Shown: positions 3,915 through 47,890, numbered from the stretch's first letter. The stretch: DNA of 64,000 nucleotides from Gammaproteobacteria bacterium (GCA_013697705.1 JACCWJ010000004.1:30938-94937); one strand, 5' to 3'. Numbers and translations are program-made. The notes: a model not told the origin generated them from the sequence alone.

Positions 3915-4766
3915 ATGGGAAAAAATTTACAAAAATTACAGTTTGCTGCCCCAATAGGCAGTCTAGAAGCCTATATTCATTGGGTAAATCAAATTCCACT
4001 ATTGAGTGTCGAAGAAGAAAAAGAGCTAACTCATAACCTCTATTATAACGGCGATTTAGAGGCAGCTCGTCAACTCATCTTATCGCATCTACGCTTTGTT
4101 ATCCGCGTAGCCAAAGGTTACGGCGGTTATGGCCTCCCCCAGTCTGATCTTATTCAAGAAGGCAATATTGGATTAATGAAGGCGGTTAAACGTTTCAATC
4201 CTGAGGTGGGAGTACGTTTAGTGTCTTTTGCTGTCCATTGGATAAAGGCAGAGATCCATGAGTTTATCCTTAAAAACTGGAAAATTGTCAAAGTCGCCAC
4301 GACTAAAGCTCAACGTAAACTTTTTTTTAATTTACGAAAAGCCTCCAAAAATTTAACCTGGTTTTCCCAAAAAGAAGTTCAGGATCTTGCGAATGATTTA
4401 AAGGTGAGCGAAAAAGATGTGCGTAAGATGGAAGCTAGGCTCCATTTACAAGACGAAACTTTTGATCCCCTGATTCAGGACGACGACAGCGAAAGGCAGT
4501 CTCCAGCACATTATTTAGAAGATCATCGCTATGACCCAGCAAGAACACTCGAGGCGGAAGATTGGTCTGAAAGTCGGGAACAAAAACTTCACCTTGTTAT
4601 GGCGAACCTAGATGAAAGAAGCAAAGATATTCTCCAACAACGCTGGCTAGTGGATAAAAAAGCCACTCTTCATGAACTGGCCAGTAAGTACAACGTCTCA
4701 GCAGAACGCATCCGTCAGCTTGAGAAAAATGCGATGAATAAAATCAAAGAATCCCTTCATAACTAG
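3915..4766 (+). CDS. rpoH: RNA polymerase sigma-32 heat-shock factor RpoH
   Basis: Contains the diagnostic RpoH box QRKLFFNLR plus sigma-70 regions 2 and 4; position downstream of ftsYEX as in E. coli. Confidence 0.93.
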
Positions 4767-4773
4767 TGCACTA

Positions 4774-4839
4774 ATGCAGCGCAGCAGCATCTGATACTTG
4801 CCCGCTAAAGCAAAAACCCGGATACCGCAGCGCTCCATC
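4774..4839. repeat. Two degenerate fragments of the REP-like palindrome family seen at 45710-45892 (atgcagcgcagcagcat at 4774-4790; aaacccggataccgcagcgctccatc at 4814-4839)
   Basis: 12-nt identity (atgcagcgcagc) to the reverse complement of copy A loop and 9-nt identity (aaacccgga) plus ~17/20 further matches to copy A-prime; located just 3' of rpoH. Confidence 0.45.
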
Positions 4840-4928
4840 TAAGCACCCTAAGTGCCCAATAAGTGTCTTGACTTGTAAGTAGTCCATGCTACTGTTAATT
4901 TGTAATAACCAGCAAGAAGGATAATCCA

Positions 4929-5753
4929 GTGAAGATAAACCATTTGTTAATGGCGGGTTTGTTTTCTTTTGCTTTGATTTCATCACAAGCAGCTAAAGGA
5001 ACTGAGCCCACAGCGACGCCCCCTGCGGCAGCGAAGAATACTGCCAATGTCACTCCCCCGATAAATGACCTTTCTGATACTCAAGTAAAACAAATTCAAA
5101 AAGTAGTCCATGACTATCTAGTTCAAAATCCTCAAGTTTTAGTTGAAGCCTCTCAGGCATATCAAGACCAGGAATTAGCAAAAGCGAAAACAAAAACGCA
5201 ACTGGCTGTCTCAAAAAATGCTAAATCTCTGTTTAATTCAGCTCACAGCCCTACCGTTGGCAATCATAACGGCGATGTTACGGTCATCGAGTTTTTAGAT
5301 TATCAATGCACTCATTGTCGCGAGATGTCAACGGTGGTTGGCGGTCTGATAAAAGGCGACGGGAAAATCCGAGTAGTTATCAAAGAACTGCCCATTTTCG
5401 GCGGCTCCTCAAAATATGCAGCTCAAGCCTCCATTGCTTCAATGAAACAAGGCCCAGATAAATTTTTAGCGTTTCATAAATCCTTGTTAGAAGCAGCGCC
5501 ACCTTTAACCGATCAGAAAGTAATGGAAGTAGCTAAAAATGCTGGACTAAATACCCAGCAGCTTGAAACCGATATGAAGAGTAAGATCGTCGAGGATCAA
5601 ATCAATGATAACTTCAAATTAGCACAAGCTTTGGGACTTTTAGGAACACCCGCTTTTATCGTTTCAAATAGAAGTGGTAGCCATGTGGAATATGTTCCCG
5701 GGGCGGTAACTATTGAGAGCTTAAAGCAGGCCATTACCCAAGTACGTAAATAA
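4929..5753 (+). CDS. Periplasmic thiol:disulfide oxidoreductase, DsbA family (Com1-like outer-membrane-associated protein)
   Basis: GTG start, signal peptide, thioredoxin CxxC active site DYQCTHCREM, KELPIFGG and GTPAFIV motifs; overall architecture and many residues resemble Coxiella Com1 as I recall it, but not identical. Confidence 0.8.
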   Translation: MKINHLLMAGLFSFALISSQAAKGTEPTATPPAAAKNTANVTPPINDLSDTQVKQIQKVVHDYLVQNPQVLVEASQAYQDQELAKAKTKTQLAVSKNAKSLFNSAHSPTVGNHNGDVTVIEFLDYQCTHCREMSTVVGGLIKGDGKIRVVIKELPIFGGSSKYAAQASIASMKQGPDKFLAFHKSLLEAAPPLTDQKVMEVAKNAGLNTQQLETDMKSKIVEDQINDNFKLAQALGLLGTPAFIVSNRSGSHVEYVPGAVTIESLKQAITQVRK

Positions 5754-5813: not shown

Positions 5814-6764
5814 TTGATACATGATGCAGATAATATAGATGTTAAAACCTTCCAAGGCATGATTTTAGCTTTACAACATTACTGGGCAAAACAAGGCTGT
5901 ATTATCTTGCAGCCTTATGATATGGAAATTGGGGCGGGCACCTTTCATACCGCCACCTTCTTAAGGGCTATTGGCCCCGAACCCTGGAAAGCAGCTTATG
6001 TACAGCCCTCTCGTAGACCTACAGATGGTCGCTATGGAGATAGTCCCAATCGAACGCAACATTATTACCAATTCCAAGTGGTGCTCAAACCCTCTCCAGA
6101 CAACATCCAGGACCTCTATCTAGGTTCCTTACGTTACTTAGGAATCGACCCCCTTATCAATGATATCCGCTTCGTAGAAGACAATTGGGAATCACCCACC
6201 TTAGGAGCCTGGGGGCTGGGTTGGGAAGTATGGCAAAATGGTATGGAGATTAGTCAATTTACCTACTTTCAACAAATAGGCGGGCTTGAATGTCGACCTG
6301 TCACCGGTGAAGTCACTTATGGCTTAGAGCGAATTGCTCTCTACATACAGAAGGCTGACAGTTTTTATGATTTGGTGTGGACCAAAAATTCAGAAGGCAC
6401 GGTAACCTACGGTGATGTGTTTCACCAGAATGAAGTAGAAATGTCGACCTATAATTTTGAGTATGCAAATGTTGATTACTTATTCAGCCAATTTGATATT
6501 TACGAGCAAGAATCGCAAAAATTAATCGCGGCTAATCTGCCCCTTCCTGCCTACGAGTTTGTTCTTAAAGCTTCCCATACTTTTAATTTATTGGACGCAA
6601 GACGAGCCATATCAGTTACAGAAAGACAACGATTTATTCTTAGAGTAAGAAAATTGGCATTCGCCGTAGCGAAAGCCTATTATGAAACCCGAGAAAAATT
6701 GAACTTTCCACTGCTCTTAAAAAAAAACTCTAAACTAATGATGGATAAAGCCGCGGTCGTCTAA
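5814..6764 (+). CDS. glyQ: Glycyl-tRNA synthetase alpha subunit
   Basis: Near-identical blocks to E. coli GlyQ ([48 protein letters not shown]); annotated start is TTG at 5814, next in-frame ATG at 5859, so start uncertain. Confidence 0.9.
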
Positions 6765-32832: not shown

Positions 32833-34167
32833 ATGAGAAACTCCATTACCCGAGAATTTAAGGGTATTTTTCATCTGGCCCTCCCTTTAATTTTTAATTT
32901 ACTAGCATACATGGCAATGCAGGTTATTAGCACCGTTATGCTCGGAAGGTTAGGCCCTCAAGCATTAGCCGCAGCTGCAGTGGGTAACGTTATTTATATT
33001 ATTATCTTGGTGGGATGTATGGGTGTTCTTACTGCTGTAGGAACATTAGCCGCAGAGGCATTTGGTAAAAAAGATCAGATGAAAGTACAAACGATTAGTC
33101 AGCAAGGAATTTGGCTTGCCATATTTTTAAGTATTCCTGCTCTGTTAGTCGTTTGGAACGCGCATCATATATTATTAGCTATCCACCAGCCGGTGGAAGT
33201 CGTTCGGGGGGCAAAAAGTCTCTTGCACGGACTTTTTTGGGGGTTCCTACCCGAATTATGTTTTATTGGTTTGAGAGAATTTTCCACCGCCATTTCAAGA
33301 CCTAAAATTGTTATGTTTATCTCTGTTGGAACCATCCCCGTAAATATAATGTTAAATTATTGGTTCATTTATGGTGGATTAGGTTTACCGGCTATGAAAA
33401 TATTCGGAGTAGGGTTGGCTACTTCAATTGTTTGTTGGCTATCCTTCCTTGTATTAGCGCTCTATCTTTCGCTGCATCGCAATATTTATCATTATAAAAT
33501 TTTGCAATTTACACTTCCACATTGGAATACGCTAAAACGTATTGTCAAATTAGGGCTTCCCGTTGGAACGAGTTTTGTGGTTGAAGAACTCTTATTTGTG
33601 ATTGTCGCATTACTTATTGGTTACTTTGGTGTCGTTGCACTTGCAGCGCACCAAATAGCCATTCAATGCATGTACCTATTTGTAATGATACCTATTGGGA
33701 TCGCACAAGCGGTAGCCGTAAAGGTGAGCCAGGCTCGAGCAGATCCAACAAGGGTGTCTGCCTTTCGCGTCGCTTACATTGCTATCGGCTCTGGCCTAGG
33801 TTTAGCATTTATAACCGCTTGCCTATTTTGGTTTTTTCCAAAATTTTTCGTTCATTTTTTTCTAAATGTGCACATAGCTCAAAATCAACCTGTGCTTCAG
33901 CTGGCTGTAAAACTACTGGCCATTACAGCCATATTCCATATTATTGATGCGGGGCAATTAATAACAAATGGTGCGCTGCGTGGATTTCAAGATACATTAG
34001 TGCCGATGTTTTTAGGGTTAATTTCATTTTGGTTGATGGGAATAGGAAGTGGATATGTGTTTGGTTTCATTTATCACTATGGGGCGGTGGGATTATGGTG
34101 GGGTTTGGCGCTAGGTATTGCAAGCTCCGCAATCTTGCTACAACTGCGTCTGCAAACACATAAATAA
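32833..34167 (+). CDS. MATE family multidrug/Na+ efflux transporter (NorM/DinF-like)
   Basis: 444 aa, 12 predicted TM, N-terminal GIFHLALPLIFNLLAYMAMQVISTVMLGRLG typical of MATE. Confidence 0.82.
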   Translation: MRNSITREFKGIFHLALPLIFNLLAYMAMQVISTVMLGRLGPQALAAAAVGNVIYIIILVGCMGVLTAVGTLAAEAFGKKDQMKVQTISQQGIWLAIFLSIPALLVVWNAHHILLAIHQPVEVVRGAKSLLHGLFWGFLPELCFIGLREFSTAISRPKIVMFISVGTIPVNIMLNYWFIYGGLGLPAMKIFGVGLATSIVCWLSFLVLALYLSLHRNIYHYKILQFTLPHWNTLKRIVKLGLPVGTSFVVEELLFVIVALLIGYFGVVALAAHQIAIQCMYLFVMIPIGIAQAVAVKVSQARADPTRVSAFRVAYIAIGSGLGLAFITACLFWFFPKFFVHFFLNVHIAQNQPVLQLAVKLLAITAIFHIIDAGQLITNGALRGFQDTLVPMFLGLISFWLMGIGSGYVFGFIYHYGAVGLWWGLALGIASSAILLQLRLQTHK

Positions 34168-34175
34168 ACTGAAGT

Positions 34176-34220
34176 GATTGCATTCCTTGATGTAGCGAAG
34201 CGAAATCAAGGAATGCAATC
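34176..34220. repeat. REP-like palindrome: 16-bp perfect stem (gattgcattccttgat / atcaaggaatgcaatc) with 13-nt loop gtagcgaagcgaa
   Basis: Exact inverted repeat between convergent MATE gene and OM protein gene; loop is near-identical (12/13) to loop of hairpin copy at 45797-45833 whereas stem sequence differs (compensatory). Confidence 0.7.
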
Positions 34221-34235
34221 GCCTTGTGAAAGATT

Positions 34236-34877
34236 TCAGAACCAATAACGCAGCGCTAATCCGACTGCTGTAGAGCCGGTATTGTTTGCATGGTAAAGAC
34301 CGAATGCCCCTGAGCGATGATGAATACGAGCAATGATCTCCCATTCTGGATGACTAGGAAGACCAAAGGCCAGATCGAGTAATAAAAAATTTAATAACTT
34401 TTTTGCCTCTTCTGAATTTTTTTCTTCCGAGTAAGGTACCTTGGTGACATAGGATATCCCCTCCCCTACAGAAATGGTGGTTTTAAATTTGTGTCGCCAG
34501 GGAAAATGATACCAATTGAAAGCAATGTAAGGATTAAACTCTAAGATATCGCCATAGGTATCCTGCAGAACAGTAAAATTACCTCTGAAATCTACCGAGC
34601 TCATGATGGGTTGAAGAAAGCGTCGGACTGGATTGCAAGGATTTAACTCCTTGCCTATTTCTAATGAGTAAAGCGTATCTTTGTTTAAGGAATAATTGAA
34701 TGCGATTACTTCACCTAAATTATCGTTAGTCATTTTTCCGTAATAGATTAATGCAAACCATTGGGGATAATAGGCTGTGGGAAAAGCGGTTGTGCTATTG
34801 CACAAATCAGCGTAGGAATTAGTTCCCATTAATAATAATATAAGAACATATAAGCGTTTCAAGTAGTATTCCCTCAT
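34236..34877 (-). CDS. Small outer-membrane beta-barrel protein, possibly PagL-like lipid A deacylase
   Basis: Signal peptide, 213 aa, alternating amphipathic strands, C-terminal ...LALRYWF with terminal Phe (OMP signature); HHRSG segment loosely resembles PagL His-x-Ser catalytic motif. Confidence 0.45.
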   Translation of the reverse strand: MREYYLKRLYVLILLLMGTNSYADLCNSTTAFPTAYYPQWFALIYYGKMTNDNLGEVIAFNYSLNKDTLYSLEIGKELNPCNPVRRFLQPIMSSVDFRGNFTVLQDTYGDILEFNPYIAFNWYHFPWRHKFKTTISVGEGISYVTKVPYSEEKNSEEAKKLLNFLLLDLAFGLPSHPEWEIIARIHHRSGAFGLYHANNTGSTAVGLALRYWF

Positions 34878-42874: not shown

Positions 42875-44065
42875 ATGTCCCCATTGAAAATGGCTGATCT
42901 TGATTTGAACAATAAACAACTTCTCATCAGAGTTGATCTCAATGTTCCCATTGAAAACGGAAAAATTACCAGCACCACACGTATTGAAGCCATATTGCCT
43001 ACAATACAAATGGCGTGCCAACAAAATGCCAAAGTAATATTAATGTCGCATCTGGGACGGCCTAAAGAAGGATATTATGACGCTGATTTTTCTCTGGCGC
43101 CGGTGGCAACTTATTTAAGTGAACGACTAGGTCAGCCTGTAAAATTAATCGATAAACTCGATACCATCGCCTTACAGCCCGGACAGGTGGTGTTGCTTGA
43201 AAACATACGTTTTATGCAAGGAGAAAAAGAAAATAGCGCCCTCCTTGGAAAAAAATTAGGCGATCTTTGCGATATTTTTGTAATGGATGCTTTCGCAACA
43301 GCGCATAGAAAAGAAGCCTCCACTTATAGTGTGGCTGAGCACGCCCCTGTCGCCTGTGCGGGCCCCTTACTGGTGTCTGAGATGGATGCACTGCAACAAA
43401 TTTTGAAACAACCTGCCAAACCTTTAGTGGCTATTGTCGGCGGGTCAAAAGTATCTACAAAGTTAAGTATCCTCAAAAATATTTTAAAGGATGTCGATGT
43501 CTTAATTGTCGGCGGTGGCATTGCTAATACTTTTTTAGCTGCGAAAGGATATAATGTGGGTAAATCTTTGTATGAGCCTGATCTTATCCCCCAAGCGATT
43601 GAAATGTTAAATTTTGCTGAGCAGAATAATAAAACAATTGCATTGCCCGAAGATGTTGTGGTGGCTAAAGACTTTTCGTCGGAAGCCAAAGCCGTTATCT
43701 TAGACATAGATCAGATTACGGATGAGTTTATTCTAGATATTGGGCCTCGCACTATAAAACGATTATTGCCTATTATTCAGAATGCCAAAACGCTCCTTTG
43801 GAATGGACCCGTAGGACTCTTTGAATGGGAGCAATTTAGCGGTGGCACTGAAGCGTTAGCAAAAGCAATTGCAAATAGCCAAGCTTATACCGTAGCGGGA
43901 GGCGGGGACACGCTCGCTGCGATCGAAAAATACCACGTTAAGGATAGTATCTCGTATATTTCAACAGGAGGCGGAGCCTTCTTGGAAGTTTTAGAAGGGA
44001 AAAAGTTACCGGCAATCGCCATTTTAGAACGTCGTAATGAAAAAAACGATATAACTATTCATTAA
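42875..44065 (+). CDS. pgk: Phosphoglycerate kinase
   Basis: MSPLKMADLDLNNKQLLIRVDLNVP aligns with E. coli Pgk N-terminus (so start 42875 preferred over 42857); 396 aa. Confidence 0.93.
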   Translation: MSPLKMADLDLNNKQLLIRVDLNVPIENGKITSTTRIEAILPTIQMACQQNAKVILMSHLGRPKEGYYDADFSLAPVATYLSERLGQPVKLIDKLDTIALQPGQVVLLENIRFMQGEKENSALLGKKLGDLCDIFVMDAFATAHRKEASTYSVAEHAPVACAGPLLVSEMDALQQILKQPAKPLVAIVGGSKVSTKLSILKNILKDVDVLIVGGGIANTFLAAKGYNVGKSLYEPDLIPQAIEMLNFAEQNNKTIALPEDVVVAKDFSSEAKAVILDIDQITDEFILDIGPRTIKRLLPIIQNAKTLLWNGPVGLFEWEQFSGGTEALAKAIANSQAYTVAGGGDTLAAIEKYHVKDSISYISTGGGAFLEVLEGKKLPAIAILERRNEKNDITIH

Positions 44066-44076
44066 AAGGGTACTTT

Positions 44077-45504
44077 ATGCGACGCACCAAAATTGTGGCC
44101 ACACTAGGCCCTTCTTCCGATAATGTAGATATTCTCTGTCAGATGTTGCAACAAGGCGTCGACGTGGTACGCGTAAATTTTTCACACGGTGAGGCAGGGG
44201 AACAAGAGGGCCGGGTTAATCGGGTGAGAGAAGTTGCCAAAAAAGTGGGCAAAGAAGTCGCTATCCTTGCCGACCTCCAAGGTCCCAAAATTCGTATTGC
44301 GAAATTTAGAAATCGCCAAGTTACCTTAATTCGTGGTGACAGTTTCATTTTAGATGCGGCAATGGCCTCCGGAGAGGGTGATGAAAAAGCGGTTGGGATA
44401 GATTATAAAGAATTACCCAATGACGTTTTTGCAGGTGATACCTTATTATTAGATGATGGACGTATCGTGTTGCATGTTGAACAAGTCAGCTCCCCCCAAA
44501 TCCAATGTCGAGTTGAAGTAGGCGGCTTATTGTCGAACAATAAAGGTATCAACCGTAGAGGTGGTGGCTTATCTGCAAAGGCATTAACAGAAAAAGATAA
44601 AAAAGACATTAAAACCGCTTGTAGCTTAGAAGTGGACTATATTGCGGTCTCCTTTCCCCGTACTGCAGAAGATATCAAAGAAGCCCGCAATCTCATTCAT
44701 GAAGCAGGGGGCAATGCCTGCATTATTGCCAAAATTGAACGTCAAGAAGCGGTCAATGCTATCGACGAAATTATCCTCGCGTCTGACGGAGTGATGGTGG
44801 CGCGAGGCGATCTTGCTGTTGAAATTGGTGAGGCAGCAGTGCCTGGCGTCCAAAAACATATCATTCATCGGGCGCGCACGTTAGACCGACCTGTTATAAC
44901 GGCGACACAGATGATGGAGTCGATGATTCACAGCAGTGTCCCTACACGTGCGGAGGTTTCCGATGTAGCGAATGCGATATTGGATGGCACAGATGCCGTT
45001 ATGTTATCTGCTGAGACAGCAGTGGGATCCTATCCGGTAGAAGTAATTGAGGCAGTATCTCGCATTTGTGTGGGCGCTGAAAAACACCCTAGAACGTTAG
45101 TCTCTAAACATCGTGTGGAAAGTCATTTTGGTCGCATTGATGAAGCCATTGCTATGGCAACTATGTATGCTGCTAACCACATGAATATCAAAGCAATAGT
45201 GGCATTAACTGAATCCGGTGCCACCCCTTTATGGATGTCGCGTATTCGCTCCGGGATACCTATTTTTGGATTGAGTAGACATCTGCGCACTCTTCGTAAA
45301 ATGACCTTATTTCGAGGAGTTTATCCTATTCATTTCGATGCTACCCAAATTCACCGCCCTGAAATAAATAAACGCGCCGTAGAAGAGTTACTACAAAAAG
45401 GCCTAGTAAGTAAGGGCGACCTTGTTATTGTCACTAAGGGGTCTGCGATGGGGGTGCATGGGGGCACCAATTCAATGAAGATCGTTGAGGTGGGTAAGAA
45501 ATGA
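44077..45504 (+). CDS. pyk: Pyruvate kinase
   Basis: MRRTKIVATLGPS N-terminus, 475 aa, tkt-gap-pgk-pyk glycolytic cluster. Confidence 0.93.
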   Translation: MRRTKIVATLGPSSDNVDILCQMLQQGVDVVRVNFSHGEAGEQEGRVNRVREVAKKVGKEVAILADLQGPKIRIAKFRNRQVTLIRGDSFILDAAMASGEGDEKAVGIDYKELPNDVFAGDTLLLDDGRIVLHVEQVSSPQIQCRVEVGGLLSNNKGINRRGGGLSAKALTEKDKKDIKTACSLEVDYIAVSFPRTAEDIKEARNLIHEAGGNACIIAKIERQEAVNAIDEIILASDGVMVARGDLAVEIGEAAVPGVQKHIIHRARTLDRPVITATQMMESMIHSSVPTRAEVSDVANAILDGTDAVMLSAETAVGSYPVEVIEAVSRICVGAEKHPRTLVSKHRVESHFGRIDEAIAMATMYAANHMNIKAIVALTESGATPLWMSRIRSGIPIFGLSRHLRTLRKMTLFRGVYPIHFDATQIHRPEINKRAVEELLQKGLVSKGDLVIVTKGSAMGVHGGTNSMKIVEVGKK

Positions 45505-45695
45505 TGCAAACACTCACCCAGGTGCTACTTATCATAGGCGCCGGATTTATTTTATGGTTCACCTATCAATCAATAAAACGCAATCCACAGGTATTTTCAG
45601 CGGAAAATATTAATAAAAGCATTTTCACCTTGGGAATTTTGGCCCTCTGTTTAATCGCTATTATTGCCTTTCTTGTTTATCTATTAAAAAATTGA
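45501..45695 (+). CDS. Small two-TM membrane protein (64 aa), translationally coupled to pyk (ATGA overlap)
   Basis: ORF start overlaps pyk stop; two hydrophobic helices (VLLIIGAGFILWF and IFTLGILALCLIAIIAFLVYLL); no family recognised. Confidence 0.4.
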   Translation: MMQTLTQVLLIIGAGFILWFTYQSIKRNPQVFSAENINKSIFTLGILALCLIAIIAFLVYLLKN

Positions 45696-45709
45696 AAGTT
45701 AACTACAAT

Positions 45710-45892
45710 CAACAACCTGGATTCCGCTGCGCTGCATCCAGGCTACATTAAAGATCGTGAGGTGGGTAAGATGATGCAACGCTCATCCAGGTACTCTAAT
45801 GTAGCCTGGATGTAGCGCAGCGAAATCCGGGTTTTTTACTGGCAACGAGTGTCAACAACCTGGATTCCGCTGCGCTGCATCCAGGCTACGTT
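45710..45892. repeat. Cluster of three ~40-bp REP-like palindromic elements: copy A 45710-45750 (+), inverted copy A-prime 45797-45833, copy B 45853-45892 (+)
   Basis: Copies A and B identical over 37/40 nt (caacaacctggattccgctgcgctgcatccaggctac[ag]tta); A-prime is their near-exact reverse complement; each forms a 7-8 bp stem (cctggat/atccagg) with 13-nt loop. Confidence 0.8.
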
Positions 45893-45962
45893 AGGGCCTC
45901 CCTAGGAAACTCGGTTACTCAACTGCTATTATCAAATAGTTAGGATAATAAGTGAGAGCCAG

Positions 45963-46967
45963 TTGAAAGTTATCTTTTTTACGATGTTACTTTTCCTGCT
46001 AGGAAGTTGCTCGGACTATGAAGGTCAGCCTTTACAAGGCTATGTAGAGGGTGAATATACCTTGATGGCATCGACTGTTTCAGGAAAGTTATTCAAATTA
46101 CATGTAGAACGGGGGCAATCTGTTAAGGCAGATCAACGGTTGTTTGATTTAGATCCTGAACCTGAATCCTCCGCATTTAAAAAAGCAAAATCCAATCTTG
46201 ATGCAGAAAAATCTAAGCTAAGAGACTACATGTCGGGCGAGCGCTCCACCGTATTGGGGGGCATTATTGCGCAACGGGAGCAAGCACAAGCTGATCTTGA
46301 GTTAGCTAAAAGCAATTTCAGTCGTACTGAACAGCTCTACCAGAAAGCAGTAGTTAGCAAATCTGACTATGATGATGCACTGGCAAAACTTAAATCCACC
46401 CAACAAAAAGTGACACAGTTTGAAGAGAATCTTAAAGAAGCAGAGTTGGGAGAACGACAATATCGAATATTAGAGCAAGCTGAACAAGTACGGGCTGCAG
46501 AGGCTACGTTACAAGAAGCAAAATGGCGACTAGAACAAAAAACAATTACAGCCCCGGAAGCAAGCCTTGTATTTGACACGTTATTTAATGAGGGAGAACA
46601 AGTTGCTGCGAACCAGGCAGTTGTTTCATTATTGGCACCTCGTTACATCCGTTTAATATTTTATGTCCCAGAGCCTATTCGCTCCAAACTTGCGCTCAAT
46701 GCACGGGTCGAGTTCGATTGTGATGGGTGTAACCAAAGATTTACGGCTTATATTAATTATATTTCGCCTGAAGCAGAGTACACCCCCCCTGTTATTTTTA
46801 GCCGCGAAAGCAGAATTAAATTAGTGTACCGTGTTCAAGCAAAGTTGCCCCTTGGGGTAGCGGCCAAAGTGACTCCTGGTCAGCCAGTGGATGTTTACAT
46901 TCCCCTGCAGACACATAAAAGAAAATATTTTTTCGGAATTAATTTATGGCAACTCATGAAAAAATAA
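45963..46967 (+). CDS. HlyD-family membrane fusion (periplasmic adaptor) protein of ABC-type efflux system, possible lipoprotein
   Basis: 334 aa, N-terminal signal with LLGSC, long coiled-coil region, C-terminal beta-barrel/lipoyl-like segments; TTG start at 45963 (ATG at 45984 alternative). Confidence 0.75.
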   Translation: MKVIFFTMLLFLLGSCSDYEGQPLQGYVEGEYTLMASTVSGKLFKLHVERGQSVKADQRLFDLDPEPESSAFKKAKSNLDAEKSKLRDYMSGERSTVLGGIIAQREQAQADLELAKSNFSRTEQLYQKAVVSKSDYDDALAKLKSTQQKVTQFEENLKEAELGERQYRILEQAEQVRAAEATLQEAKWRLEQKTITAPEASLVFDTLFNEGEQVAANQAVVSLLAPRYIRLIFYVPEPIRSKLALNARVEFDCDGCNQRFTAYINYISPEAEYTPPVIFSRESRIKLVYRVQAKLPLGVAAKVTPGQPVDVYIPLQTHKRKYFFGINLWQLMKK

Positions 46968-47890
46968 TTGATGTGCAAGGCCTGAAAAAAAATTTTCAGG
47001 GGAAGACTGCGGTGAATGACGTTTCATTACAAGTTAATAAAGGCGAGATTTTTGGATTTCTGGGGCCTAATGGTAGCGGTAAAACTACCACCATTCGAAT
47101 GTTATGTGGTTTATTAATCCCGGATGGAGGCAGTGGCACTTGTCTGGGGTATGACATCATTACTGAAGCACATAAAATCAAACAGCAAGTCGGCTATATG
47201 GCTCAAAAATTTAGCCTGTATGATGATTTAACCATTTATGAAAATTTAGAATTTATCGCCAACATTTATGGTATGAAGGATGTTAAAGAGCGGGTAAAGG
47301 AGGCGATAGATGAATTAGGTTTAGCTGAAAGACAAAACCAGTTGGCTGGGCAGTTGTCTGGCGGTTGGAAACAACGTTTAGCCTTAACCGCGGCATTATT
47401 ACATAATCCAAAACTGTTGCTGCTCGATGAACCCACCGCAGGTGTTGATCCCAAAGCGCGACGGGATTTTTGGGATCAAGTGCATTATCTGGCAACAAAA
47501 GGAATAACCACCTTAGTTAGCACGCATTATATGGATGAAGCTGAGCGATGTAATCGTCTCACCTATATTATGAAAGGAAATGTGTTGGTAAGAGGCACAG
47601 CGAATGAAATTATCCAAAAATCAAAGATTATAACGTGGCAAGTTACCGGTGAAAATTTACCTTCCTTAGCCCAACACATACAAAAAGAAAGTGGTATTGA
47701 GCAAGTCATTTCATATGGTCAGTCACTGCATGTTTCAAGTAGATCTGAAGCTGCATTAGTAAACGTCGCCGAAAAATATTCTAAAGATAATCTATGGCAA
47801 CCCATGCCCACAAGTCTCGAAGATGTCTTCATAAATTTGGTGAGTAATGAAACAATAACTTTTCCGCTGGGGCCCGAAGTGGAAACGTGA
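46946..47890 (+). CDS. ABC transporter ATP-binding protein (ABC-2/YbhF-like exporter ATPase)
   Basis: Walker A GPNGSGKTT, signature LSGGWKQRLAL, Walker B LLLDEPTAGVD; 314 aa. Confidence 0.88.
   Translation: MATHEKIIDVQGLKKNFQGKTAVNDVSLQVNKGEIFGFLGPNGSGKTTTIRMLCGLLIPDGGSGTCLGYDIITEAHKIKQQVGYMAQKFSLYDDLTIYENLEFIANIYGMKDVKERVKEAIDELGLAERQNQLAGQLSGGWKQRLALTAALLHNPKLLLLDEPTAGVDPKARRDFWDQVHYLATKGITTLVSTHYMDEAERCNRLTYIMKGNVLVRGTANEIIQKSKIITWQVTGENLPSLAQHIQKESGIEQVISYGQSLHVSSRSEAALVNVAEKYSKDNLWQPMPTSLEDVFINLVSNETITFPLGPEVET

Follow-up and report, generated by a model that had tools for sequence, protein, structure and literature searches.

What are the palindromic sequences that lie between a glycolytic operon and an efflux operon in this gammaproteobacterial genome, and why does a damaged copy of the junction between the two upstream genes stand among them? 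The question arises from a 64-kb stretch of DNA, referred to below as the window, in which an earlier note, made from the sequence alone, had recognized a cluster of palindromes downstream of the pyruvate kinase gene pyk, together with a spacer resembling the end of pyk and the beginning of the small open reading frame (sORF) that follows it. Very different origins are conceivable for such a configuration, namely, the att sites of an integrative element, a duplication mediated by the palindromes, or a structural terminator that evolved in place. Here, we describe the elements of the locus, their relatives in other genomes, and the origin and role that we consider most probable.

The pyk-sORF locus and its three palindromes

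The gene pyk (44077–45504, plus strand) encodes a pyruvate kinase of 475 aa, as established from its ORF and from the Pfam families PK and PK_C on an identical product, and the upstream gene order identifies it as the last large gene of a tkt-gap-pgk-pyk operon. Its stop codon is overlapped by the start codon of the sORF (45501–45695, plus strand; 64 aa), for which no Pfam hit is on record and whose sequence, with two hydrophobic stretches, suggests a small membrane protein. The region spanning this junction, S1 (45478–45525, plus strand), was delimited from the sequence and from its alignment to the copy S1′ described below; it comprises the last pyk codons, the stop codon, a Shine-Dalgarno-like gaggtgg motif, the overlapping ATGA start, and the first 8 sORF codons. 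A spacer of 267 nt separates the pyk-sORF pair from the downstream gene (45963–46967, plus strand), the first gene of an ABC-2 efflux operon, which, according to its ORF and Pfam families, encodes an HlyD/RND-adaptor-like membrane-fusion lipoprotein; the ORF in the window has a TTG start, and the gene caller places the start at a later ATG. The neighbors of the palindrome cluster are thus pgk, pyk, and the efflux genes. No integrase or tRNA gene was found within ±5 kb of the cluster, and an Rfam scan of positions 44000–47000 at E ≤ 1 yielded no match.

The three related palindromic elements reported downstream of pyk are real. Each copy is about 42 nt long: A (45709–45750, minus strand; defined by repeat search, core match, and RNA fold), A′ (45797–45840, plus strand), and B (45852–45893, minus strand), with an 11 nt linker (45841–45851) between A′ and B. 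A and B, for which an identity of 37/40 had been given, are in fact identical in 41 of 42 positions (98%), and A′ has 3 mismatches to A. The 31-nt core CCTGGATTCCGCTGCGCTGCATCCAGGCTAC has 3 matches in the window at up to 3 mismatches, with 0 expected from 100 shuffles. The orientation of the palindromes alternates along A, A′, and B. A and A′ form the long inverted repeat that had been noticed before (48-nt arms, 85% complementary), A′ and B form another one (44-nt arms, 86% complementary, 11 nt apart), and the outer pair, A and B, constitutes a direct repeat.

All three copies carry an unpaired GTAG end (CTAC on the opposite strand), which comes first on the minus strand in A and on the plus strand in A′. 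The predicted fold of a copy consists of a stem of 7–10 bp, depending on the copy and the strand, 3-nt internal loops, a 2-bp GC stem, and a 3-nt loop, with energies of −11.8 to −15.8 kcal/mol for the better-folding strand of each copy. For A, the RNA folds with −11.8 kcal/mol on the plus strand and −15.8 kcal/mol on the minus strand, and the structure has a 7-bp stem CCTGGAT/ATCCAGG, trinucleotide bulges, and a 3-nt loop flanked by GC. The REP stem of E. coli is CCGGAT, to which the CCTGGAT of the window is close. A′ folds with −14.0 kcal/mol, compared with only −6 for its reverse strand, and is directly followed by TTTTTT. The z-scores of the single hairpins are modest (between −1.5 and −2.8), in contrast to the fold of the entire block (210 nt), which reaches −100.8 kcal/mol with z = −9.2 and in which the minimum free energy (MFE) structure pairs A′ with B.

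Altogether, the window holds three intact copies and two to three degenerate or related copies at three loci, and all of them are extragenic, located between ORFs just past stop codons. Degenerate copies of the same family are found at 4775–4851 (minus strand), between the co-directional ORFs 3915–4766 and 4929–5753. A related palindrome at 34176–34220 (plus strand; 21-nt arms, 90% complementary) lies between the convergent genes 32833–34167 (plus strand) and 34236–34877 (minus strand); it has a longer stem and lacks the GTAG, and its center GATGTAGCGAAGCGAAATC contains GCGAAGC. This palindrome may be a derived or independent relative of the others that serves as a bidirectional terminator.

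The palindromes are GTAG-tagged REPs

The exact core GTAGCCTGGATGYAGCGCAGCGRAATCC is present in at least 120 metagenome contigs from JGI, and 80 contigs were retrieved among the at least 120 matches listed, with G + C contents ranging from 36% to 70%. In 111 metagenome copies, conservation stops at the borders of the palindrome, with a preference for Y before the GTAG and for R after the last G, the GTAG itself being invariant by the design of the search. The presence of the core in at least 120 contigs and the confinement of the conservation to the palindrome indicate a discrete, widespread element and not a local structure. The T-rich tails of the copies in the low-GC window genome (TTTTTTAC, TTGTTGA) are outside the consensus of the metagenome copies.

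Several features of the metagenome copies deserve mention in their own right. Across the retrieved contigs (L085–L164), the 31-nt core is often identical base for base despite the range from 36% to 70% G + C of the hosts, and such constancy across very different hosts is striking for an element that is said to be mostly vertically inherited. The commonest variant of the core, GTAGCCTGGATGCAGCGCAGCGGAATCCGGG, has a T/G mismatch in the stem. Two contigs harbor BIME-like tandem arrays (L101, 77–507; L134, 51–439) with periods of 113 and 110 nt and 3.5–3.8 copies, in which the REP alternates with a second type (GTAGCCCGGGTGAAGCGAAGCGAAACCCGGG).

Association with RAYT genes was assessed by tblastn using the sequence of E. 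coli YafM as the probe, with the matches re-tested by Pfam. No RAYT gene was matched in the 64-kb window. In six metagenome contigs (L093, L107, L115, L123, L108, and L137), strong matches adjoin the palindrome, and in the first three of these, Y1_Tnp (PF01797) scored above the curated cut-off (26–28 bits vs. 23). In L093, the Y1_Tnp gene (1545–2063) is located between a GTAG-first REP at 1455 and an inverted REP at 2100, which is the REPtron arrangement. The palindromes downstream of pyk are GTAG-tagged REPs of a kind that, in other bacteria, flanks genes for RAYTs, the IS200-like Y1 transposases that mobilize such repeats.

In Di Nocera et al. (2013; PMC3733652), GTAG-outside pairs are described as HH dimers, GTAG-inside pairs as TT dimers, and trimers as “singletons next to dimers.” GTAG-3 REPs, a family described for E. 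coli, C. burnetii, and others, are characterized there by short loops flanked by GC and by trinucleotides that separate the loop from the stem, with C. burnetii as an example, and REPs are reported to be repeated along with flanking DNA in clusters. The terminal GTAG, the extragenic location, the alternation in dimers and trimers, and the repeated flanking DNA are all shared by the cluster in the window. An assignment to the GTAG-3 group, by analogy with the text description in that source, would fit. A′ and B form a GTAG-outside (HH) dimer that has a start-to-start distance of 58 nt and folds as one long hairpin; among the 80 metagenome loci, 13 pairs are GTAG-outside, 10 of them at 48–57 nt start-to-start, and a single pair is GTAG-inside. 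The cluster, accordingly, is composed of a singleton, A, and a canonical GTAG-outside dimer, A′-B, which resembles a REPIN hairpin, with S1′ between the GTAG ends of A and A′.

The inverted arrangement of A′ and B around a short linker, their folding into one hairpin, and the presence of the identical REP core on both sides of a Y1_Tnp gene in L093 are features in common with the REPIN-RAYT system (Bertels and Rainey, 2011, PMC3116915; PMC8266576). In contrast to that system, the 64-kb window contains no RAYT gene, and the GTAG-inside pair A/A′ with its captured 46-nt spacer departs from the usual unit; putative mobility of A′-B is supported by its presence or absence between species.

S1′ is a copy of the pyk-sORF junction

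S1′ (45751–45796, plus strand), the 46-nt stretch that separates the GTAG ends of A and A′, is a degenerate, frame-shifted copy of S1. Aligned with positions 45478–45526, S1′ shows 42 identities, 3 mismatches, and 4 gap positions. The local score of 61 compares with a mean of 25.0 (s.d. 2.2) and a maximum of 37 for 200 shuffled versions of the spacer searched against the whole window on both strands, so that the earlier description of the spacer as a degenerate copy of the end of pyk and the start of the sORF is well founded. There is no further match to S1′ in the window, where the next best score is 23. The two copies are offset by 272–273 nt, with about 225 nt between them, and S1′ is a copy of the pyk-stop/sORF-start junction taken from about 270 nt upstream.

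The decay of S1′ amounts to three substitutions and three indels, which break the reading frames of both pyk and the sORF. The gaggtgg and ATGATG motifs are retained, and the pseudo-ORF that starts there extends over 14 codons (MMQRSSRYSNVAWM*), not over nine as had been stated. S1′ is non-functional filler that has been decaying since its capture. Its borders are flush with the REP units at both ends. A second, shorter repetition was noticed in the same region: TTGAAAGTTAaCT, located at the stop of the sORF, has a counterpart, TTGAAAGTTAtCT, at the start codon of the downstream gene. The offset of this repeat, 271 nt, nearly equals that of S1 and S1′, but the repeat is not significant by itself.

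The sORF is older than the REP cluster

The comparison with related genomes suggested in the earlier note gave the polarity of the insertion, since the sORF is present in ten relatives and the REPs and the pyk-end copy are present in none of them. A protein search retrieved an sORF homolog, P0003, which is 73% identical and is encoded directly after pyk on L083. Searching the genomes retrieved via pyk with tblastn revealed further homologs directly after pyk in L011, L013, L029, L005, L022, and L035, and the closest pyk relatives, L207, L208, and L209 (85–87% identity in a large protein search), also have a gene of 63–65 aa after pyk. In these ten related loci, neither a REP nor a second pyk-end junction was detected, the best scores being 12–22 vs. 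58 in the window. A scan of the genome collection with pyk, in which the relatives were at most 67% identical, likewise showed the REP in none of the 80 loci listed.

A 62–65-aa ORF with two hydrophobic stretches thus follows pyk in at least 10 Legionellales-like genomes, and it appears to be an uncharacterized conserved small protein tied to the glycolytic operon. In the five loci that are closest to the window, its start overlaps or adjoins the pyk stop, and in some of the more distant ones (L011, L013, and L005), it lies 50–200 nt downstream; the coordinates of the homologs are 6001–6189 in L083 and about 4425–4622 in L207, L208, and L209. One source labels the homolog as a TRAP transporter small subunit, a label that looks doubtful.

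A weak likeness at the nucleotide level between the start of the sORF and an arm of the REP, on which the earlier note had remarked, does exist, but the stretch in question encodes a TLTQ-V/I-LLIIGAG motif that is conserved in REP-free relatives, including L083, the DNA of which is unlike the REP at this place. Because the N-terminus is conserved at the protein level where no REP is present, the start of the sORF was not derived from the element, contrary to what had been proposed.

The gene order in L209, namely, pyk-sORF, a membrane-fusion lipoprotein gene with a conserved MKV start, an ABC ATPase gene, and an ABC-2 permease gene, is the same as in the window. The spacer in L209 measures 80 nt vs. 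267 nt in the window, and the excess of about 187 nt compares with a length of 185 nt for the block A-S1′-A′-linker-B. The spacers of the window and L209 are not significantly similar in pairwise comparison, the exception being a collinear 15-mer whose distance from the start codon is conserved: GTT(A/T)CT(C)AACTGCTA is located 35–36 nt before the start codon in both (45913–45928 in the window), with GTTACTCAACTGCTA at a distance of 35 nt in the window and GTTTCTAACTGCTA at 36 nt in L209. Aligning the relatives' spacers with MAFFT yielded nothing informative. The collinear match suggests that the remainder of the spacer upstream of the efflux gene (45894–45962, plus strand) is probably ancestral. 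The absence of the REP and of S1′ from the ten related loci and the 80-nt spacer of L209 identify the 185-nt block as a lineage-specific insertion. On this comparison of sequences, the sORF is judged to be ancestral and the block to have been inserted downstream of it.

Two of the relatives show unusual sequences at contig ends beyond the sORF. In L207, the closest relative with a pyk identity of 87%, the contig stops about 170 nt past the sORF, and the end of the sequence (4740–4795; gtcgtccccgcgaagg...gtcattcccgcg) resembles CGTC-tagged palindromes, a different REP super-family. If the L207 end indeed consists of CGTC-tagged REPs, the spacer may have been colonized by a different palindrome family in a sister lineage. 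The L083 contig terminates, downstream of the sORF, in a GC-rich sequence that differs from the DNA around it (6330–6480; gcggaccccaaaaagcctatggatatgtggacgcgtcctgcggaccagcc...), which may be part of another repeat or structured RNA.

A likely role at the 3′ end of the transcript

REPs are involved in transcription termination and in the stabilization of mRNAs. On the pyk-sORF transcript, the hairpin of A lacks a U tract. The hairpin of A′ is directly followed by U6, and for this reason, a role as a terminator or as a 3′ hairpin barrier is proposed: A′ with U6 is, in the predicted fold, most likely a candidate intrinsic terminator of the tkt-gap-pgk-pyk-sORF transcript, combined with protection of the 3′ end. 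A scan for consensus promoters and terminators did not flag the REPs, A′ included, which is explained for A′ by the interruption of its stem by internal loops. A′ and B can form one hairpin of about 44 bp. The dimer could act in both directions and, as DNA, might serve as a substrate for a RAYT. The direct repeat of A and B is a potential recombination site.

Discussion

Taken together, we consider it highly probable that the cluster is a trimer of RAYT-type GTAG REPs that was inserted in this lineage, that S1′ is a copied, non-functional scrap of the junction upstream, and that the hairpins have a role at the 3′ end of the transcript. In this lineage alone, the 185-nt block A-S1′-A′-linker-B would have been inserted into the short stretch that separates the ancestral pyk-sORF pair from the efflux operon, and S1′ would have been taken up from the upstream junction as the REP cluster was built or amplified. 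The notion of a palindrome-mediated duplication, which the earlier note had also entertained, is in keeping with this scenario in kind: the elements are REPs, and the repetition of a REP together with its flank is described in PMC3733652 and is seen within the same family, in L137.

Two specific routes by which S1′ may have been copied were considered. In one of them, a tandem duplication of a 273-nt unit comprising S1, the sORF, and a REP would have joined the two units at the GTAG end of the REP, after which the second sORF body would have been lost and A′ acquired. Such a duplication accounts for both pairs of direct repeats, S1/S1′ and A/B, in the correct order, at the cost of at least two events and the removal of the second sORF body. 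Furthermore, A and B differ in 1 of 42 positions (2%), vs. about 13% for S1 and S1′, so that a single duplication requires the REPs to have been constrained or homogenized. When the second 272 nt were compared with the first as a possible decayed duplicate, the only similarity beyond S1′ was a 13-mer at offset 271, which is not significant. We regard a tandem duplication as possible but rather doubtful. In another scenario, S1′ would have been acquired by template switching or by a RAYT-type strand transfer at the REPs during the build-up of the cluster, and this route, taken in the broad sense, is a plausible, if still tentative, option. That some other mechanism copied S1′ is conceivable, and we deem it rather unlikely.

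Other members of the family provide a context for such copying. In L137, a REP and 129 nt of the 3′ end of the neighboring RAYT-like gene occur in three copies with 75–96% identity. The 129-nt repeats (L137, 1891–3470) encode the C-terminal part of the RAYT-like protein, so that parts of the cluster's own transposase gene are repeated within it; a complete RAYT gene was not observed in this region, where the best match begins at residue 97 of the query. More generally, 40-nt flanks of REPs have a second local copy in 11 of 109 cases on the GTAG side and in 22 of 92 cases on the other side, vs. 2 of 302 controls at random positions, an excess that partly consists of unmasked partner REPs of another type and not of true flanking DNA. 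The copying of flanks appears, from these sequence comparisons, to be recurrent in this REP family.

The borders of S1′ invite a more specific interpretation. Both lie immediately 3′ of a CT, and each CT is 5 nt from the GTAG of the adjacent REP; the border sequences, each read on the GTAG-first strand of the REP, are GATCT^TTAAT-GTAG (minus strand) and GGTACT^CTAAT-GTAG (plus strand). The source S1 has a CT at both points that correspond to the borders of S1′. In vitro, TnpA_REP cuts at a CT on the 5′ or the 3′ side of a REP, and the cut REP is linked to another 3′-OH (PMC8266576). S1′ might conceivably be a natural footprint of cleavage and strand transfer catalyzed by a RAYT; being post hoc and drawn from one locus, this interpretation is improbable as it stands and is offered as a lead only.

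Several other explanations of the locus must be weighed against the REP cluster. If S1 and S1′ were attL/attR-like duplicates left by an integrative element that brought the sORF, with the palindromes as its recombination sites, direct repeats of a gene 3′ end would be expected to bracket a small segment, as they do here, and as in the att duplications of known integrative elements, the 3′ end is repeated a short distance downstream. The bracketed segment, however, has only about 225 nt, consisting of the sORF and one REP, and contains no recombinase; the interval is 273 bp; the only gene inside it is ancestral, being located after pyk in ten related genomes; neither an integrase gene nor a tRNA gene is present within ±5 kb; and the copy stands between transposase-associated palindromes. 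The empty site of L209, a plain spacer of 80 nt, moreover places the insertion downstream of the sORF and not around it. The att site suggested in the earlier note is therefore hardly credible. A structural terminator of purely local origin, immobile and unrelated to any repeat family, would be in place at the 3′ end of an operon, and the U6 tail of A′ and the very stable fold of the block are what one would expect of it. Nevertheless, the same 28–31-nt sequence is found in at least 120 unrelated contigs, also beside RAYT genes, there are other copies in the window, and the block is absent from 10 of 10 orthologous sites, so that an origin in place is very improbable. The evidence contradicts a local origin; a function in termination is compatible with the REP cluster. 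The opposing case raised in the earlier note, a static terminator with no other copies, is at odds with the further copies in the window and in many other organisms.

A further alternative treats the 258 nt from 45705 to 45962 as a single MITE-like insertion with the target-site duplication TTGAAAGTTA (45692–45704 and 45963–45975). It draws on a direct repeat of 12/13 nt at offset 271, close to the offset of S1 and S1′, and on QMITE2 of Coxiella, an element of 150–190 bp that contains a GTAG REP, has direct repeats of 7–11 nt, and sits in 3′ UTRs (PMC5896051). By description, the likeness extends to the size, the 3′ UTR or intergenic position, the related order of the host, and a highly stable RNA fold, but QMITE2 has terminal inverted repeats and unique 7–11-nt direct repeats; in the window, the former are missing and no target duplication is credible. 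Also, the score of the 13-mer was reached by 26 of 300 shuffles, no terminal inverted repeats were seen at the ends at 45705 and 45962 when the sequence was read by eye, positions 45913–45928 look ancestral given their L209-like distance from the start codon, the second copy of the 13-mer falls in the conserved MKV start of the downstream gene, and the outer REPs A and B are direct and not inverted. We consider a MITE quite unlikely. Little credence is also given to a functional S1′, whether as a decoy ribosome-binding site, a 14-codon leader peptide, or a regulatory RNA in the A/A′ loop: the ribosome-binding and start motifs are kept and the region is structured, but S1′ has accumulated three indels and three substitutions in 46 nt with a broken pyk frame, has no Rfam match, is absent from all ten relatives, so that there is no conservation arguing for a function, and is not looped in the MFE fold, in which A′ pairs with B. 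Finally, the order A-S1′-A′-B might be the product of a mis-join at the identical 42-nt repeats during assembly. Indeed, in the short-read Logan assembly of this organism, the sequence is interrupted within A and taken up again within B, and a single assembly spans the locus (L205, identical to the window and evidently the same record). However, S1′ is diverged and not identical to S1, a divergence that a collapse or mis-join would not create, and a genuine A = B repeat that exceeds the k-mer in length is expected to break contigs; the direct repeat is the likely cause of the break. An artefact is, hence, exceedingly unlikely.

The correct label for this locus is, therefore, a REP/BIME-type cluster, and neither an integration site nor a new element. 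The cluster shows nothing beyond what is described for REP clusters, and it explains why short-read assemblies of this organism break at this locus. Within an uncultured Legionellales-like lineage, the window and L209 represent a clean pair of a filled and an empty site for this REP family. The feature of broader relevance is the piece of host DNA, 46 nt long and with CT-flush borders, that the cluster captured. If the RAYT footprint were true, the locus would record the in vivo capture of host DNA by REP clusters and would bear on the open question of how REPs and BIMEs are disseminated. Should CT-flush captured fragments prove to be recurrent genome-wide, they would constitute sequence-level evidence for the building of REP clusters by RAYTs.
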